Source of the DNA: Anaerolineae bacterium
Lineage (GTDB): Bacteria > Chloroflexota > Anaerolineae > B4-G1 > DUEL01
Direction of reading: 5' to 3'
DNA: 64,000 nucleotides
NCBI GenBank assembly: GCA_041082215.1
Contig: JBDOIF010000154.1
Coordinates: 1 to 64,000 of the forward strand
Shown: positions 35,987 through 61,415 of the stretch, one piece after another
Layout of the letters: the number at the start of each line of letters is the position of its first letter
Position numbering within the stretch: position 1 is the first letter of the stretch
Translations under genes and position numbers: made by a program
The notes under the pieces: generated by a model
Seen by the model: the letters and a program-made list of their open reading frames with translations, nothing else
The model's database searches: none
What the model was told of the DNA's origin: nothing

Positions 35987-36739
35987 TCACCCAACCGCCC
36001 CACACGCCGGACACCCTGGTTGGGGAGCAAAAGCCACTTCCTCGAACGTCCCGCTCCATCCGTCCCACACCAGCAACCTCCCCACCAGAGGCCTGCCGAT
36101 CCCCAGGAGCACCTTCACCCCCTCCACTGCCTCCAGCGCCCCCATTGTGCCTGCCACCGCTCCCAGTATCCCCACCTCCCGGGCGGTCGGTGCGGCGCTG
36201 GGATCGAAGGAGGGGGGGAACAGGCATCGGTAGCACGGTCCCCGCCCCGGCAGCACCACCGACATCTGCCCCTCCCAGGCCAGCACCGAAGCCCAAACCA
36301 GGGGGGTCCCGGCCCGTATGCATGCCTGGTTGACCAGGAACTTGGTCTCGAACGTATCGGAGCACTCCACCACCAGATCGTAGGCTGCCGCCAGCTCCAG
36401 CGCCCGCTCGGGCGTCAACCGCTCAGAGTAGGGGATCACCCGCAGGGAAGGGTAGAGAGCGGTGAGCCGTCGAGCCGCGGAGTCGGTTTTGGGCTTTCCC
36501 AGGCTATCCGCCGTGTGCAGGATCTGCCGGTTGAGGTTGGAAAGGGCCACCCGGTCGAAGTCCACGATCCCCAGGACCCCCACCCCTGCGGCGGTCAGAT
36601 AGAAACAGGCGGCAGAACCCAGCCCCCCTGCGCCGATCACCAGCACCCGGGCGGACCTGAGCCGCTCCTGTCCTGCCTCACCGACCCCCTCCAGCACCAG
36701 TTGGCGGGCGAACCGCTCCCGTTCCTCCGCGCTCAGCAC
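35987..36739 (-). CDS. MoeB/ThiF-family adenylyltransferase
   Basis: GTG start after GAGGAGG; RFARQ, GAGGLG, D.V..SNLNRQ, PCYRCLF, CPAC; no rhodanese domain. Confidence 0.9.
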   Translation of the reverse strand: MLSAEERERFARQLVLEGVGEAGQERLRSARVLVIGAGGLGSAACFYLTAAGVGVLGIVDFDRVALSNLNRQILHTADSLGKPKTDSAARRLTALYPSLRVIPYSERLTPERALELAAAYDLVVECSDTFETKFLVNQACIRAGTPLVWASVLAWEGQMSVVLPGRGPCYRCLFPPSFDPSAAPTAREVGILGAVAGTMGALEAVEGVKVLLGIGRPLVGRLLVWDGWSGTFEEVAFAPQPGCPACGAVG

Positions 36740-36952
36740 ATGCCACCTCCTCGTCCCTCTTCGTGTCCCCTGTGGCTCTGGGGGGTTGATATACTCAGAA
36801 GCGTTTGGGCCGCTGAGATTATACTCTCTTCGAGGAGGCGGGGCAATCGCGAACCTCGGGACTTGACAAAGGGGCTGCTTCCTGCCATACTCCCCACCAA
36901 CGTTTCGCGGACCCGGCTGTTCGGCCTGGCCACTGCGCGGGAGGAGGACCCT

Positions 36953-37726
36953 GTGGAGCAGCTTTTTCTTCAACTGTTCGGCGGAAACCACATCTTGATG
37001 GGAATTGTCGGAACCGTTTTGACCGGATTCGCCACCGGGGCTGGGGCGCTGCCGGTCCTTTTCACCACCCGGGTCCCGGAGCGGTTGCTGGACGCGCTCC
37101 TGGGGTTCGCGGCGGGGGTGATGCTGGCCGCCACCGCCTTCAGCCTTATCGTCCCTTCCATCGAACTGGGGGGCATCTGGCCAGCGGTCCTGGGTATCCT
37201 GCTGGGAGCCCTTTTTCTGGCAGCCCTTGACCACCTTCTCCCCCACACTCACCTGATCAAAGGGGCCGAGGGGCCTTCGTCCAGCCTTCGCCGCACCTGG
37301 TTGCTCGTCATCGCCATCACCCTTCACAACTTCCCGGAGGGGCTGGCCGTGGGAGTGGGGTTCGGGGCGGAGCGGCTTTCGGACGCTATCGCCCTGATGG
37401 TCGCCATCGGCCTGCAGAATATGCCGGAGGGACTGGCCGTGGCCCTCCCGCTGGTGCGGGAGCAGTGGCCCCGGGGGAGGGCGCTGCTCTACGCCCTGGG
37501 GTCGGGGATGGCGGAGCCTGTAGCGGGCGTCTTCGGTGTGCTGGCGGTCACCCTGATGCAGCCCCTTCTCCCCTGGGGACTGGCCTTCGCTGCCGGGGCG
37601 ATGCTCTACGTCGTCTCCGACGAGATCATCCCTGAAACCCACAGCCGGGGCTTTGAGCAGGAGGGGACGTGGGGGGTGATCGTCGGCTTCCTGGTGATGA
37701 TGTTCCTGGATAACGCGCTGGGATAA
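36953..37726 (+). CDS. ZIP-family (ZupT/GufA) metal transporter
   Basis: GFAAGVML, LHNFPEG.AVG, IGLQNMPEG, EIIPE; GTG start after GAGGAGG; TTGACA-17-CATACT upstream. Confidence 0.9.
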   Translation: MEQLFLQLFGGNHILMGIVGTVLTGFATGAGALPVLFTTRVPERLLDALLGFAAGVMLAATAFSLIVPSIELGGIWPAVLGILLGALFLAALDHLLPHTHLIKGAEGPSSSLRRTWLLVIAITLHNFPEGLAVGVGFGAERLSDAIALMVAIGLQNMPEGLAVALPLVREQWPRGRALLYALGSGMAEPVAGVFGVLAVTLMQPLLPWGLAFAAGAMLYVVSDEIIPETHSRGFEQEGTWGVIVGFLVMMFLDNALG

Positions 37727-37789
37727 ATTTGAAATTGGTGGCCGCGAACCCTTGATTTTCTGTCCGTTCCGTTGTATCATGCCACCCTG

Positions 37790-38470
37790 ATGACTCGACC
37801 GACCGTCAAGATCGCTCCTTCCATACTCGCCGCAGACTTCGCCCACCTGGGTGACGCCGTGGCGGAAGCGGAGGCCGCTGGAGCTGACTATATCCATGTG
37901 GATGTGATGGATGGGCGATACGTGCCCAATATCACCGTCGGGCTGCCGGTTGTGGCGGCGCTCCGCCGCGTCACCCATCTCCCTCTGGACGTCCACCTGA
38001 TGATCGTGGAGCCGGAGCGGTACCTGGAGGCTTTTGCCAGGGCGGGAGCCGACATCCTCACCGTGCAGGTGGAGGCCTGTCTGCACCTGCATCGGGCCTT
38101 GCAGGTTCTGCACAGCCTGGGGGTGCGGGCAGGGGTGGCCCTCAATCCGGCCACGCCGCCGCTTGCGATCAGCCAGGTGCTGAGGGATCTGGACCTGGTG
38201 CTGGTGATGACCGTCAATCCGGGGTTTGGAGGGCAGGCGCTGATCCCCACCATGCTGCCCAAGATCGCCGAGGTCCGCCGTATGCTGGATGAGGCGGGGA
38301 GCCCGGCGGAGCTGGAGGTGGATGGGGGGATCTCCCCTCAGACCGCCCCCCAGGTCGTGCGGGCGGGCGCGCGAGTGCTGGTGGCCGGGGAGGCGATCTA
38401 CGGGGCGCCGGAAGGAGTTGGCCCGGCCATTCAGGCGATGCGCCTGGCGCTGGAGAGTCGCTACCTTTAA
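37790..38470 (+). CDS. rpe: Ribulose-phosphate 3-epimerase
   Basis: IAPSILAADF, HVDVMDG, DVHLMI, MTVNPGFGGQ, EVDGG. Confidence 0.95.
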   Translation: MTRPTVKIAPSILAADFAHLGDAVAEAEAAGADYIHVDVMDGRYVPNITVGLPVVAALRRVTHLPLDVHLMIVEPERYLEAFARAGADILTVQVEACLHLHRALQVLHSLGVRAGVALNPATPPLAISQVLRDLDLVLVMTVNPGFGGQALIPTMLPKIAEVRRMLDEAGSPAELEVDGGISPQTAPQVVRAGARVLVAGEAIYGAPEGVGPAIQAMRLALESRYL

Positions 38471-38505
38471 AAAAAACAAAGCGCCAGCCTTTGGGAGGCC
38501 GGCGC
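38469..38505 (-). terminator. Intrinsic terminator of rpmB
   Basis: GCGCC..GCCT/AGGC..GGCGC hairpin followed by a T-rich run on the minus strand. Confidence 0.65.
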
Positions 38506-56616: not shown

Positions 56617-56862
56617 AGCCTCCAGCGCAGGCAGTTACCACATCTTCCAGAAAACTGAAATGCACCGGTGAAGGGAAGCACGGCGATCGCACAGCCTCCT
56701 CAGCCAATCCTGCCCGGTAGCATAGCAACTTAACAGGACCTTATGCGCCTGCCCTCTCTGGAAACGGGCGATTTGTGTGGGACGGCCTTTCCGGGCTGTC
56801 CAACAGTCTGGACGGCCTGTCCTGCATGGTTGTTGATCCTGGCTGTTGACGGCCGGGCGGCT
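56617..56862 (+). ncRNA. ssrS: Probable 6S RNA; 3' end uncertain (56796 or 56862)
   Basis: TATAAT at 56592-56597; non-coding rod-like pairings (AGCC/GGCT, GGCAGTT/GACGGCC, TTCCAGA/TCTGGAA, TGCACCGG/CCGGTAGCA). GGCAGTTACC and GGGAAGCACGG..TCGCAC resemble my recollection of cyanobacterial 6S RNA; not verified by search. Confidence 0.5.
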
Positions 56863-56868
56863 GCCGCA

Positions 56869-56897
56869 TTGACAGAATCCCCAGGCCGGGGTACCAT
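56869..56897 (+). promoter_or_regulatory. Sigma70 promoter positioned for a leaderless thiI mRNA
   Basis: TTGACA-17 nt-TACCAT, with the GTG start 7 nt downstream and no SD. Confidence 0.65.
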
Positions 56898-56903
56898 AAC
56901 GGC

Positions 56904-58097
56904 GTGAGTGAAAACATTGTGGCGAAGCTCATCAGCCAGCACGCCGTCGTCCATTACGCCGAGATCGGCCTCAAGGGGCGGAACCGCCCCTTCTTCGAAC
57001 GGGCCCTGGCGCAGAACATCTCCCGCCGGCTGGAAGGGCTGGGGCTGAAACCGGAGAGGGTGGAGCGGCTCTCCGGCCGCATGCTTGTCCACCTGGGCCG
57101 TCCGCTGGCCGGAGCGGCCTGGACCGAGGCGCTGGGGACGGTGTTCGGGATCGCCTATTTCTCCCCCGCCTTCCTGGTGGACCGGGAGATGGAGGCTATC
57201 CGCGCCGCCCTCCTTAAACACCTGCCGGATGGACCGGTGGCCTCCTTCCGCATCCGCGCCGCCCGGGACGATAAGTCCTTCCCCCTCACCTCCCCTGAGA
57301 TCGCACGGGAGCTGGGGGCAGTGGTCCAGGGACGGACAGGCTGGCCGGTCAACCTGAAGGGCGCGGAACTGACGATCGGGGTGGAGGTGCTCCGCGACCG
57401 GGTTATCCTCTCCTTCGGCCATCTGCCGGGGCCGGGCGGGCTGCCGGTGGGGACGAGCGGGCGGGTGGGGCTGATGCTCTCCGGCGGGATTGACTCCCCT
57501 GTCGCCGGTTTCCTTGCGCTGAAACGGGGATGCCGGGTCATCCCCATCCATTTCCACAGCCGCCCCTTCGGCAACTGGATGGGTTCGGAGGCGCGAGCGC
57601 GGGAGATCGTGCGGACGATGCGGGCCTACGGCATCGAACCCTACCTGTACGTCGTGCCCATCGGCCGCCAGCAGCGGGAGATCGCCGTCCGCGCCCCCGT
57701 CGCCTACCGCGTCATCCTCTACCGCCGCCTGATGGTCCGTGTGGCCGAGACGATCACCCGCCGGGAGGGCGGCAAGGCCCTCTTCACCGGCGAGTCGCTG
57801 GGCCAGGTGGCCTCCCAGACCCTGGAAAGCCTGAGTGTGGTGGAGGAGGCGGTGGGGATGCCGGTGCTCCGTCCCCTGATCGGGATGGATAAGAAAGAGA
57901 TCATCGCCCTGGCAGAGCGGATCGGCACGTTCCCCATCTCCCAGATGGAAGGGGACGATTGCTGCCAGTTCCTGATGCCCAGCCGGGTGGTCACCCACCC
58001 GCACCTCCAGGCGGTGCGGGAGGCAGAGGTGGCCGTGGAGATGGACCGGCTGGTGGAGGAAGCGTTGACGCGGGCAGGGCGGGTGAGCGTCGCTTAG
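56904..58097 (+). CDS. thiI: tRNA 4-thiouridine synthase (THUMP + PP-loop, no rhodanese)
   Basis: EIGLKG.NR..FE, GGLPVG, LSGGIDSPVA, GESLGQVASQT, DDCC. Confidence 0.94.
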   Translation: MSENIVAKLISQHAVVHYAEIGLKGRNRPFFERALAQNISRRLEGLGLKPERVERLSGRMLVHLGRPLAGAAWTEALGTVFGIAYFSPAFLVDREMEAIRAALLKHLPDGPVASFRIRAARDDKSFPLTSPEIARELGAVVQGRTGWPVNLKGAELTIGVEVLRDRVILSFGHLPGPGGLPVGTSGRVGLMLSGGIDSPVAGFLALKRGCRVIPIHFHSRPFGNWMGSEARAREIVRTMRAYGIEPYLYVVPIGRQQREIAVRAPVAYRVILYRRLMVRVAETITRREGGKALFTGESLGQVASQTLESLSVVEEAVGMPVLRPLIGMDKKEIIALAERIGTFPISQMEGDDCCQFLMPSRVVTHPHLQAVREAEVAVEMDRLVEEALTRAGRVSVA

Positions 58098-58111
58098 CAC
58101 AGGGGCGAGGC

Positions 58112-58233: not shown

Positions 58234-59973
58234 CTACCACCACACGGCGTCCAGTTCCGCGTCCGGCACGTCCCAGACGACGTTGTGGGGCGGCAGCTTC
58301 TCGTACTTCATGAACTCGGGCACCCGATCGTGGACCTTGGTGAAGCCAGCCGCCCGGTTGAAGGCCAGCTCTTTCTCCATGATCTCCTTGCCGATGCGAG
58401 CCGCGTCATCCGCCGTCCAGTTCGCCCCCAAGACGCCCGCGCATTCCTCCACCATCCCCTCATAGCCGCTGGGGATATCGAGGATGGCGAAGGCGATGAA
58501 GAGGCAGTGGCCGGTGGAGTCAATGAAGGCGGTGGCAATCTGGAAGTTGCGGGAGAGGTCCGCCTTCTTGATCTCAAACTGGTCCACCTTGCCGCTGACG
58601 CCCAGGATCTCCGGGGCGATGGTGTAGCCGGCGGTGTGGTCGGCGCCCATTGTGGAGGTGGCGTAAGTGACGCCGATGCCCTTGACGGCGCGCGGCTCGT
58701 AGGCGGGCATGTTCTGGCCCTTCACGCCGGGGACGCGGTGCCAGCCGAAGGCCCGGCCGGTCGTGGCGGCGCCGTTGCCCAGGATGCGGCCCAGCGGCGT
58801 GCCTTTGCGGATCTCCTCGTCCAGCAGCCGGATGGCTCCCTTCCAGTCCCCGAAGGGCAGGAGTCCGGCGTCCATCGCCACCGCCAGCGTGCCCCCGGTC
58901 TCAATGGTGTCAATGCCGATATCGTTGCAGAGCCAGGTCAGTTTGCCGATGGCCTCCAGGTTGTCAATGCCACAGTTAGCTCCCAGCGCCCAGGTGGTCT
59001 CGTACTCAATGCAGGAGACAATTTCGTTCCCCTGCTCGTCGTAGTACGTATTGGAGCACTGGATAACGCAGCCGGGGTGGCAGGCGTGGTTGTAGAGCTC
59101 CTTGCCCAGCCGCTTCTTGTTGTTCTCGAAGATGGCCTCACCAGAGGTCGCCGCGGCGCCCTCAAAGCGGCCCTGGCGGAAGTTGCGGGTGGGGTAGCCG
59201 CCTGCCTCGTTGAGGATATTGACCAGGATGGCGGTGCCATAGGTGTTCAGGCCGCCCTTGGGCTTGGTGATGTCGTGCTGGCGGAGGGCCTCCAGCATCT
59301 TCTTGCGCCCCTGCTCAAAGAGGTCGGGGTTGGCGATGTGCACGCCCGGCCCGCCTTCGGGGTCCACGATGATGAACTTGAGACCCTTGGAGCCCATCAC
59401 GGCACCCAGGCCGCCGCGCCCGGAGTAGCGGCTGGGCCGGCCGCTGGCATCGTTGAAGCAAATACCGGCCATTGCCATCCGGTACTCCCCGGCGACGCCG
59501 ATGGAGCAGATGTCCACCTTCTTGCCGAAGCGGTCGAAGAGGATCGGATAGACTTCGTAGAGGCTCCGTCCGGCGTACTCGTCGGCGGGGAAGAAGGTGG
59601 CGCCGTCTTTGGTGATGTGCAGCCCCCACCAGCCGCCGTCCTTGGGGAAGCCCTCCACGATGATGGCCTTGATCCCCAGTTTCGCTACCGACTGGGGCCA
59701 GGAGGAGCCGGCGTTGGACTCCTTGATGCCGCCGGTGAGGGGGGACTTACCGCCCACCGAGACGCGGCCAGAGGTCGGCGCGTTGGTGCCGGTGATGATG
59801 CCCGGAGCGAAGACCAGTTTGTTGTTGGGGCCGAGGGGATGGCAGGTGGGGTCCACCTCGTCGCAGACGATGGTGGACGTGAGACCGCGCCCGCCGAGGA
59901 ACTTATATTTATCGGGGACATCCTCATAGGTAGCGGTGCGGTCGGTCATATTGACGCGGAGAATCTTTGCCAT
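58234..59973 (-). CDS. aor: Aldehyde:ferredoxin oxidoreductase family (tungstopterin) enzyme
   Basis: LGGRGL, KSPLTGGIKESNAG, GRGGLGAVMGSK, C..GCVIQC, EYET, GADH; ATG 59973 after AAGGAGGT. Confidence 0.92.
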   Translation of the reverse strand: MAKILRVNMTDRTATYEDVPDKYKFLGGRGLTSTIVCDEVDPTCHPLGPNNKLVFAPGIITGTNAPTSGRVSVGGKSPLTGGIKESNAGSSWPQSVAKLGIKAIIVEGFPKDGGWWGLHITKDGATFFPADEYAGRSLYEVYPILFDRFGKKVDICSIGVAGEYRMAMAGICFNDASGRPSRYSGRGGLGAVMGSKGLKFIIVDPEGGPGVHIANPDLFEQGRKKMLEALRQHDITKPKGGLNTYGTAILVNILNEAGGYPTRNFRQGRFEGAAATSGEAIFENNKKRLGKELYNHACHPGCVIQCSNTYYDEQGNEIVSCIEYETTWALGANCGIDNLEAIGKLTWLCNDIGIDTIETGGTLAVAMDAGLLPFGDWKGAIRLLDEEIRKGTPLGRILGNGAATTGRAFGWHRVPGVKGQNMPAYEPRAVKGIGVTYATSTMGADHTAGYTIAPEILGVSGKVDQFEIKKADLSRNFQIATAFIDSTGHCLFIAFAILDIPSGYEGMVEECAGVLGANWTADDAARIGKEIMEKELAFNRAAGFTKVHDRVPEFMKYEKLPPHNVVWDVPDAELDAVWW

Positions 59974-60058
59974 CGAACACCTCCTTAGCTGATTGCGTGG
60001 AAACGAAACCGCCCAATACATGGAAAAGGAGGTCACGCCCGGCCTGCAGGGCCGGCGG

Positions 60059-60146
60059 ACCTCCTTTGCAAATGCGGCGGGCGTGGGGATTGCTCCCCAC
60101 ACCTTAACGCCCACCCGTCCCGGAGGGAGCGGAATGGGTCGGAGGT
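60059..60146 (-). promoter_or_regulatory. Moco/Tuco-like riboswitch aptamer upstream of aor
   Basis: P1 ACCUCC/GGAGGU; GNRA-capped stem GUGGGGA-GCAA-UCCCCAC; 3' GCCCGCCGCAUUUGCAAAGGAG resembles the Moco motif tail; short (88 nt). Confidence 0.65.
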
Positions 60147-60233
60147 AAAAGCCCTGTTATGGGAAAGCTGGTGGTTCTAACCTTATTTTTACCTCAAATC
60201 CCGGTTTGTGTCAAGTTCCCCTTTTCCACCGGA

Positions 60234-61415
60234 TCAGATAACTCCCAGCTCCCTGCCCACCCTGGCGAATTTCTCCAGGCCGTAGTTCAGGTCATCCTGG
60301 CTGAGCATTGCCGAGACCATCACCCGGATGCGGGCCTGGCCTCTGGGGACGGTGGGGAAGCCGATCGCCATAGCGAACACCCCCTCCTCGAAGAGGCGCC
60401 GGCTGAAGTCCTGGGCCAGCTTCGCCTCCCCCAGCATCACCGGCGTGATGGGGGTGACGCTGGTGCCGGTGTTGAAGCCCAGCCTTTTCATTTCTTCTTT
60501 GAAATAACGGGTGTTTTCCCAGAGGCGGTCCACCAGCTCTGTGGATTCGGAGAGGACCTCGACGGCGGCCATGCAGGCGGCGGTGTCGGTGGCGGTGACG
60601 GCGTTGGAAAAGAGGAAGGGGCGGGCTTTCTGTCGCAGGTAGTCCACCACGATCTTCTTACCCGCGATCACCCCGCCGACGACGCCGAAGGCCTTGGAGA
60701 AGGTGCCGATCTCCACGTCGAACCGGCCGTGGAGGCCGAAGTGGTCCACGATGCCGCGTCCCCCGCGGCCCAGCACCCCCTCGCCGTGGGCGTCGTCCAC
60801 CATCGTGATCAGCCCGTACCGCTCCGCCACTTCATAGATCCGGTCCAGGGGGGCCACATCGCCGTCCATCGAGAAGACGCCGTCGGTGATGACCATGCCG
60901 CGCCGGTAGCCGGGCAGGTGCTCTTTGACCTTGGCCTCCAGGTCCTCCGGGTCGCAGTGCTCGTAGACGATGATCCTGGCCCCGCTGAGGCGACAGCCGT
61001 CAATGATAGAGGCGTGGTTGAGCCGGTCGGAGAAGATCACATCCTCCCTACCCACCAGCGGTGGGATCGCGGCCTGGTTGGCGCAGAAGCCGGACTGGAC
61101 GTAGAGGGCGTCTTCCACCCCCTTGAACTCGGCGACCTTCTTCTCCAGTTCGATGTGGAGGGAGAGCGTGCCGGCGATCGAGCGGACCGCCGTCGGCCCT
61201 ACCCCGAACCGGTCCAGCGCCTCGTGGGCGGCTCTCACCAGACGGGGGTGGGTGGCCAGGCCCAGATAGTTATTCGTACAGAGGTTGAGCACCTTCTTGC
61301 CGTCCACCACCATCCAGGGGCCGGGCGGCGAGTCTATGGTGCGGAGGTGGATGAAGAGACCCGCTTCCTTCAACGCTGCTGTATCTTCCCGAATGAAGTC
61401 AAATTTATCTGCCAT
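60234..61415 (-). CDS. kbl: Glycine C-acetyltransferase (2-amino-3-ketobutyrate CoA ligase)
   Basis: [42 protein letters not shown]; downstream of tdh. Confidence 0.9.

Follow-up and report, generated by a model that had tools for sequence, protein, structure and literature searches.

Introduction

Cofactor-sensing riboswitches usually shut off cofactor synthesis or uptake. In the Moco riboswitch of E. coli moaA, the ribosome binding site lies inside helix P1 and, as described in PMC2408646, the ligand represses translation of the biosynthesis operon. RNAs of this class that lack helix P3 were reported in 2008 upstream of tungsten-cofactor enzyme genes, and the loss of P3 correlates with tungsten metabolism (PMC2408646). 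The association of P3-less RNAs with tungsten-cofactor enzyme genes also appears in the account of PMC11725836; it is already in print and is not a new finding of this work.

In E. limosum, Tuco/Wco copies are located upstream of the wor1 operon, tupABC, fetABC1 and focA (PMC11725836, PMC2408646). According to PMC11725836, the wor1 copy is predicted to act at translation, through a sequestor and an anti-sequestor of the ribosome binding site, and the fetABC1 and focA copies are of the terminator type, with expression going up under tungsten limitation, i.e. they are OFF switches. As both OFF-type and translational copies are described there, the direction of control cannot be assumed from the class. 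In the literature cited here, the direction in which Tuco riboswitches control tungsten-enzyme genes is unsettled. An ON logic for pterin cofactors has been suspected for torCAD in PMC10845959, but it is not tied to a defined RNA there. The main text of PMC2408646 mentions repression and terminators, and we found no ON wiring in it. Our literature search for ON-type Moco, Tuco or Wco switches returned nothing relevant, and PMC9481103 describes none.

Here, we analyse the leader of an aldehyde:ferredoxin oxidoreductase gene (aor) in a 64-kb stretch of Chloroflexota DNA, referred to below as the window, and compare it with the aor leaders of its relatives.

Results

The aor gene and its leader

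The nearest solved structures to the AOR protein are AOR-family enzymes (9mqx_D, 1.7e-92; 1aor, 2.1e-81; 8c0z, 3.1e-79), and two structures among the nearest, 8c0z and 9q1t, are tungsten enzymes by their listing names. Because the next gene, thiI, is on the opposite strand and convergent, aor forms a one-gene unit, Table 1. On the other side, a kbl-like gene ends upstream of the leader. Read along the minus strand, the order of elements is the kbl stop codon, a promoter-like site, an 88-nt element (the aptamer), a long hairpin, the SD and the aor ATG. The aptamer thus sits between the promoter-like site and aor. If this site is used, the aor leader would start about 30 nt before P1 and be about 200 nt long, which agrees with the length claimed beforehand. 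Boxes resembling TTGACA and TATAAT are also seen by eye upstream of the aptamer in relatives, and L028 has such boxes too.

Two further observations concern the gene content of the window. Downstream of aor, two long ORFs overlap on opposite strands, 56733-58100 (-) and 56904-58094 (+). A family match exists on the plus strand only (ThiI, 7e-93), and the 456-aa ORF on the minus strand is probably spurious. Further away, the last 250 residues of an 830-aa ORF (35990-38479, minus strand) are a ThiF/MoeB-type adenylyltransferase domain, matching Pfam ThiF (3.4e-73) and NCBIfam MoeB models, and the first 580 residues have no match. This ORF could provide a link to pterin-cofactor sulfur chemistry.

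Table 1. Features of the aor locus. In the columns: the feature, its position in the window, the strand, and remarks (energies in kcal/mol).
Feature	Position	Strand	Remarks
thiI	56904-58094	+	NCBIfam; converges on aor
aor, aldehyde:ferredoxin oxidoreductase family	58234..59973	-	579 aa; start codon ATG at 59973; Pfam AFOR_N 4.5e-61, AFOR_C 1.1e-71
aor SD AAGGAGGU	59979..59986	-	5 nt before ATG; complementary to 60033-60026 and to the P1 5' strand
U tract of putative terminator UUUUCCAUGUAUU	60015..60027	-	weak (UUUUCC); 5 U in 9 nt
Hairpin, read as an intrinsic terminator that P1 would disrupt	60025..60067	-	-34.6
Hairpin 5' arm AAAGGAGGUC	60067-60058	-	pairs with the 3' arm; contains the P1 3' strand
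Hairpin 3' arm GACCUCCUUU	60034-60025	-	pairs with the 5' arm
P3-less Moco/Tuco (Wco) aptamer, 88 nt	60059..60146	-	Rfam RF01055
P1	60146-60141 (ACCUCC) with 60064-60059 (GGAGGU)	-	
P2	60138-60110	-	
P4	60103-60080	-	GCAA loop 60093-60090
P5	60078-60068	-	
Promoter-like site TTGACA-18-AAAAAT	60185..60214	-	1 site found, 0.1 expected from shuffles
Stop codon of the kbl-like gene	60234		in minus-strand order, upstream of the leader

The aptamer belongs to the RF01055 family

When the whole window was searched with cmscan, RF01055 was the sole Rfam family found at gathering score. The match (60156-60044, minus strand) covers model positions 1-135 and scores 43.6 bits (E 4.2e-7; gathering cut-off 36). 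This alignment has deletions at the P3 positions of the model, and the 88-nt element has no room for P3. The core bases, CUCCGA after the 5' strand of P1 and AAAGGAG leading into its 3' strand, match the RF01055 consensus and are invariant in all 29 aligned homologues. The 3' tail of the aptamer reads GCC..AUUUGCAAAGGAG. Folded alone, the element contains P1 and reaches -47.8 kcal/mol (z -3.7), and none of 200 shuffles was as good. A covariance model of our own (R1, see below) scores it at 106.1 bits, as high as any relative. No second copy of the riboswitch was found in the 64-kb window; the next-best R1 match has 15.2 bits (E 0.38), and there is one Rfam match at gathering score.

The context of RF01055, i.e. 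the 5' leader of a gene for the metabolism or use of a pterin cofactor, is found here upstream of aor. The marks of the tungsten subclass are present as well: P3 is absent, and the gene is of the AOR family, with two of the nearest structures named as tungsten enzymes. The window element is a real member of a known riboswitch family on a known kind of target gene. In this respect the original prediction, which had proposed a P3-less Moco/Tuco-type aptamer in the leader of an AOR gene, is borne out by the RF01055 match together with the AFOR_N and AFOR_C domains. Each of the features it had described (88-nt length, P1 ACCUCC/GGAGGU, GCAA-loop stem and 3' tail) lies where it had been placed, and the Rfam covariance-model search that it had suggested gives a match above the gathering cut-off.

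The window aptamer is of a subtype with a GCAA loop on P4 and a short P2, in which 6 + 4 positions of the Rfam P2 internal-loop motif are deleted. Two relatives, L042 and L066, have GAAA loops, a longer P2 and far higher Rfam scores (62 and 72 bits). This difference in loop and P2 fits a loop-receptor link that is mentioned in the text of PMC2408646.

The helices covary among relatives

The AOR protein was scanned against 185,579 species genomes, which gave 77 loci, 66 of them including the aor start. They are mostly Chloroflexota MAGs (Anaerolineae, Thermoflexia, Dehalococcoidia), with some Bathyarchaeota and others, and the best AOR matches have 91-93% protein identity, which makes an Anaerolineae or Thermoflexales-like host probable for the window. 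RF01055 is found at cut-off upstream of aor in only 17 of the 77 loci, a low yield caused by the penalty for the missing P3 and the shortened P2.

We aligned 29 elements from P1 to P1, drew the structure by hand and built the covariance model R1 from the alignment. R1 gives at least 44.7 bits in 31 of the 77 loci plus the window, and all matches are on the aor strand and upstream of aor; the matches in L028, L042 and L066 are outside the training set. All R1-positive loci whose records give a phylum or class are Chloroflexota, and one is titled just 'uncultured bacterium'.

In the 29-sequence alignment 92.9% of the cells are paired, compared with 39-51% when the partners are slid. Changes on both sides occur in 14 of 28 pairs against 2-6 in the slid controls, and none of 500 shuffles reaches 14. 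The alignment of the relatives' aor leaders, a check put forward with the original prediction, thus shows that the helices covary. The compensatory changes are mostly in P2 and P4, with none in P5 (2 pairs).

The aptamer is absent from some close AOR relatives (L001, L002, L007, L011 and L012). Three of these, L001, L002 and L011 (86-92% AOR identity), have a different conserved leader located 60-230 nt upstream of aor, e.g. L002:2270-2440, and this shared leader ends in a CCGCC...GGCGG hairpin plus UUUU. From these aptamer-less leaders it follows that aor regulation has been swapped between close relatives. The contig of L003 starts within the hairpin, and the aptamer is thereby cut off.

Two loci have unusual aptamer sequences. 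In L046, a Dehalococcoidia MAG, a degenerate aptamer-like sequence with a GCAA-capped stem lies upstream of aor (2355-2433; R1 22.4 bits, E 0.003), and no hairpin or terminator was found after it. In L009 the P1 5' strand motif occurs twice, with an additional copy, ACCTCCGACTC (2283-2293), located 33 nt upstream of the one that belongs to the aptamer; this copy may have arisen by partial duplication or may serve as an alternative partner for pairing.

P1 and the downstream hairpin exclude each other

The long hairpin of the window folds with a z-score of -4.7, none of 200 shuffles is as good, and all six bases of the P1 3' strand are paired within it. For the comparison, the platform hairpin was defined as the most stable hairpin starting within AAAGGAG, in 32 leaders (31 loci plus the window). 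By energy-model folding, 31 of the 32 leaders have an equivalent hairpin, with energies from -17.8 to -42.9 kcal/mol, that pairs five or six of the six P1 3' bases; in L016 no spanning hairpin is found under this rule. The sharing of the P1 3' strand with the hairpin, which had been claimed for the window, is complete there and general in the family.

The variable base of the P1 3' strand, the one after GGAG, is A in six leaders, and all six have U opposite it in the P1 5' strand as well as in the hairpin 3' arm; leaders with G at this site have C or U opposite it. One base further on, at column 89, a standard pair with the hairpin 3' arm is possible in 28 of 31 leaders, and pairing with the P1 5' end in just 3 of the 29 aligned aptamers. 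It follows from this two-partner covariation that P1 and the hairpin are both selected and are mutually exclusive. With P1 formed, the window is left with only the inner CCGGCC/GGCCGG stem, 11 nt from the U tract.

A U tract follows the hairpin in most leaders. Counted over the 9 nt that come after CUCC, which pairs with GGAG, U occurs at least six times in 27 of 31 leaders (mean 6.6, median 7). In the background, taken upstream of the aptamers, the mean is 1.85 U, and 0.3% of the counting windows reach six. The exceptions are the window itself (5 U in 9 nt), L021 (5), L025 (3) and L023 (1). In the window, the first three U of the tract are able to pair with the AAA of the hairpin 5' arm, a fourth U follows the hairpin at 60024, and then comes CCAUGUAUU. 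A strict, independent terminator scan finds none in the window and none in L028, and reports one in L049, where the hairpin begins at GGAGG; the scan needs an uninterrupted stem and a loop of 3-8, and most of these bulged hairpins fail it.

In 7 of 31 leaders the hairpin is far from the gene, with 103-654 nt between its end and the aor start, and the aptamer-hairpin unit is kept there. No homologue of kbl or thiI was found near any of the 77 loci (tblastn, E up to 1e-5), and the unit therefore belongs to, and travels with, aor.

Several leaders contain additional elements between the riboswitch and aor. L056 (2425-2470) and L067 (2435-2475) have a second, AU-rich hairpin between the riboswitch terminator and the aor SD. 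In L021 (2330-2500), L022 (2210-2500) and L033 (930-1020) there is an extra conserved stretch between terminator and aor. A G-rich, SD-like run and then ATG stand at its beginning, and the stretch may represent a short leader ORF or else another RNA element. L023 has a 125-aa ORF in this region (1964-2341), and two genes may therefore be under the control of the switch there. The idea that this ORF is MoaD/ThiS-like was dropped, as Pfam gave no match.

Complementarity to the SD is not specific to the locus

Over 8 nt, part of the hairpin 3' arm (ACCUCCUU, 60033-60026) is perfectly reverse-complementary to the aor SD. The original prediction had pointed to this match as a possible anti-SD. The match is exact and at the positions given; as a selected feature, however, it does not hold, since complementarity within a locus is the same as between loci. 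The longest perfect complement between the hairpin 3' arm and its own SD region has a mean of 5.68 nt, compared with 5.42 nt against other aptamer-bearing loci (n=930) and 5.53 nt against 24 aptamer-less aor leaders (n=744). Against foreign SD regions, the window 3' arm has matches of 4-11 nt. The match between arm and SD is generic because the invariant AAAGGAG of the aptamer is itself SD-like, and any terminator 3' arm that pairs with it will resemble an anti-SD.

Folding was done for the 24 leaders within 140 nt of the aor start. In minimum-energy folds with P1 forced, the SD is paired at 5 of 5 bases with the freed 3' arm in 14 of the 24, including the window. In unconstrained folds, six of the 24, again including the window, have the SD paired with CCUCC of the P1 5' strand. 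As either the P1 5' strand or the 3' arm pairs with the SD, a strand resembling an anti-SD is available in both states. The anti-SD was rejected as a selected feature on both grounds, i.e. the equal complementarity within and between loci and the free CCUCC in both states. The SD itself is located 72 nt 3' of P1, not inside it.

Direction of control

The general rule for riboswitches is that the ligand stabilises P1, and the ON direction proposed here rests on it. We consider it probable that the P3-less RF01055 aptamer acts on a platform in which P1 overlaps a terminator, and that the cofactor, most likely, switches aor ON by preventing termination. A P1 helix and an intrinsic terminator that exclude each other are wired as in a transcriptional ON switch. 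That the hairpin is a terminator, and the switch therefore ON, is favoured by the conservation of the hairpin (31/32) and the U tract (27/31) and by the units that lie far from aor (7/31). The original prediction had stated that the sequence alone cannot decide between ON and OFF. This is true of a single sequence, but the 31 related leaders largely decide it.

In the proposed mechanism, the aptamer would be transcribed first and P1 would form (ACCUCC with GGAGGU). With no ligand present, the newly made 3' arm GACCUCCUUU would displace the P1 5' strand, the long hairpin AAAGGAGGUC...GACCUCCUUU would form, followed by the U residues, and RNA polymerase would terminate before aor. With the pterin cofactor bound, presumably in its tungsten form, P1 would be locked and only the short inner stem would form, giving read-through and synthesis of the enzyme. 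The apo-enzyme would then be made only when the cofactor is available. In this scheme we infer that the hairpin terminates, that the ligand stabilises P1 and that it is the tungsten cofactor, and from these the ON direction. Several points count against ON. The U tract of the window is weak and at the low end of the family, and this copy may terminate poorly; the strict terminator scan finds nothing in the window or in L028. L016 has no spanning hairpin, and L023 and L025 are poor in U. The pairing of the SD predicted in 14 of 24 P1-forced folds would oppose an ON effect at the level of translation. The E. limosum terminator-type copies with expression data, fetABC1 and focA, behave as OFF switches (PMC11725836). 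All hairpins and pairing partners considered here are predictions of energy-model folding.

The weak U tract and the pairing of the SD are the starting point of two other explanations. The hairpin could be an anti-sequestor, and a ligand-locked P1 would then free ACCUCCUU to block the aor SD, i.e. an OFF switch at translation. The perfect 8-nt complement between ACCUCCUU and AAGGAGGU, the P1-forced folds and the weak U tract are in its favour, and so are the characterised E. coli moaA member, which represses at translation according to PMC2408646, and the E. limosum wor1 copy, predicted as translational in PMC11725836. However, the mean complementarity to the own SD does not exceed the controls, the match is forced by the SD-like AAAGGAG, and with CCUCC pairing the SD in six unconstrained folds an anti-SD would be free either way. 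Nor does this explanation account for the U tracts in 27 of 31 leaders or for the units ending 103-654 nt before aor, and we regard it as improbable. Somewhat less improbable, but still unlikely, is that the family has the ON platform and this copy is weakened: a decayed U tract would make termination leaky, and the regulation would be shallow or partly offset at the SD. The window has 5 U in 9 nt compared with a family median of 7, the perfect 8-nt match of arm and SD points the same way, and forcing P1 costs 7.7 kcal/mol over free folding, a rather low value among the 24 leaders, which span about 2.5 to 17. Against decay, the hairpin is intact and strong (-34.6 kcal/mol), the aptamer scores as high as in any relative, and the four U together with the distal AUGUAUU may suffice in the host.

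The remaining alternatives concern the ligand and the role of the hairpin. Some AOR-family members use molybdenum. The RNA could accordingly sense Moco, metal-free molybdopterin or another pterin intermediate, which is compatible with the ON mechanism. The tungsten assignment of P3-less RNAs is based on gene associations only (PMC2408646), and, in the account given by that paper, direct binding had never been shown for the class. We nevertheless favour the tungsten cofactor because of the published correlation of P3 loss with tungsten metabolism (PMC2408646): P3 is absent here, and an AOR-family gene with two nearest structures named as tungsten enzymes fits this correlation. A different ligand is thus rather unlikely, although it is the strongest of the alternatives. 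Finally, the aptamer could be a relic, with the hairpin serving either for constitutive attenuation or as the kbl terminator, since the hairpin lies downstream of the kbl stop codon at 60234 and could also stop read-through from kbl. This is very improbable. The aptamer helices covary, the hairpin covaries with P1, and the unit is found in 31 loci, none with kbl nearby. A role as kbl terminator was rejected on the absence of kbl near the 77 loci together with the promoter-like site between kbl and the aptamer.

Discussion

A riboswitch that turns ON the gene of a cofactor-consuming enzyme would follow a different logic from the repression of synthesis or uptake, with the supply of apo-protein matched to the supply of cofactor. 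If the proposed mechanism is true, the apo-enzyme is made only when its labile cofactor is ready. The Chloroflexota aor leaders would then represent a conserved tungsten-cofactor riboswitch subclass that activates transcription, and the first ON wiring described for the Moco/Wco class; we put forward this wider claim tentatively, as a plausible one. The class is hereby extended to Chloroflexota, a phylum not listed in the abstract of the 2008 survey.

The 31 natural variants share one architecture and could be used directly for mutagenesis and for termination assays in vitro. If the mechanism holds, terminator read-through is a simple read-out that is easy to measure in vitro, and with this platform it could become possible to test ligand recognition directly, for the first time in the class.

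Comparison with known systems

The window aptamer and the E. coli moaA riboswitch share P1, P2, P4 and P5 of RF01055, the CUCCGA and AAAGGAG cores, and the character of a cis-acting 5' leader element with a link to the metabolism of pterin cofactors. The moaA riboswitch has P3 and the window aptamer does not. The window further differs in having its SD 72 nt downstream of P1, a platform hairpin that overlaps P1 and has a U tract, albeit a weak one, behind it, a target gene whose product uses the cofactor, and a probable ON direction of control.

The pbuE (ydhL) adenine riboswitch is the textbook case of a transcriptional ON switch: its P1 3' strand doubles as the 5' arm of the terminator, P1 stabilised by the ligand prevents termination, and there is no separate anti-terminator. 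The logic proposed for the window is the same. The aptamer fold and the ligand are unrelated, and the analogy is one of mechanism only.

Among the Tuco/Wco copies, as in the window, a P3-less aptamer is located upstream of an AOR/WOR-family gene for a tungsten enzyme, and some copies have terminator hairpins with poly-U. Compared with the E. limosum copies, the window differs in its phylum, Chloroflexota, in the GCAA loop of P4 and the shortened P2, and in the terminator 5' arm being the P1 3' strand, which implies ON. For E. coli torCAD the logic is the same, as expression is proposed to need the mature pterin cofactor and the authors suggest an ON-type riboswitch (PMC10845959). No RNA element is defined for torCAD there, and according to the same paper its torC leader shows no conservation with the moaA riboswitch; the window, in contrast, has an RF01055 aptamer.
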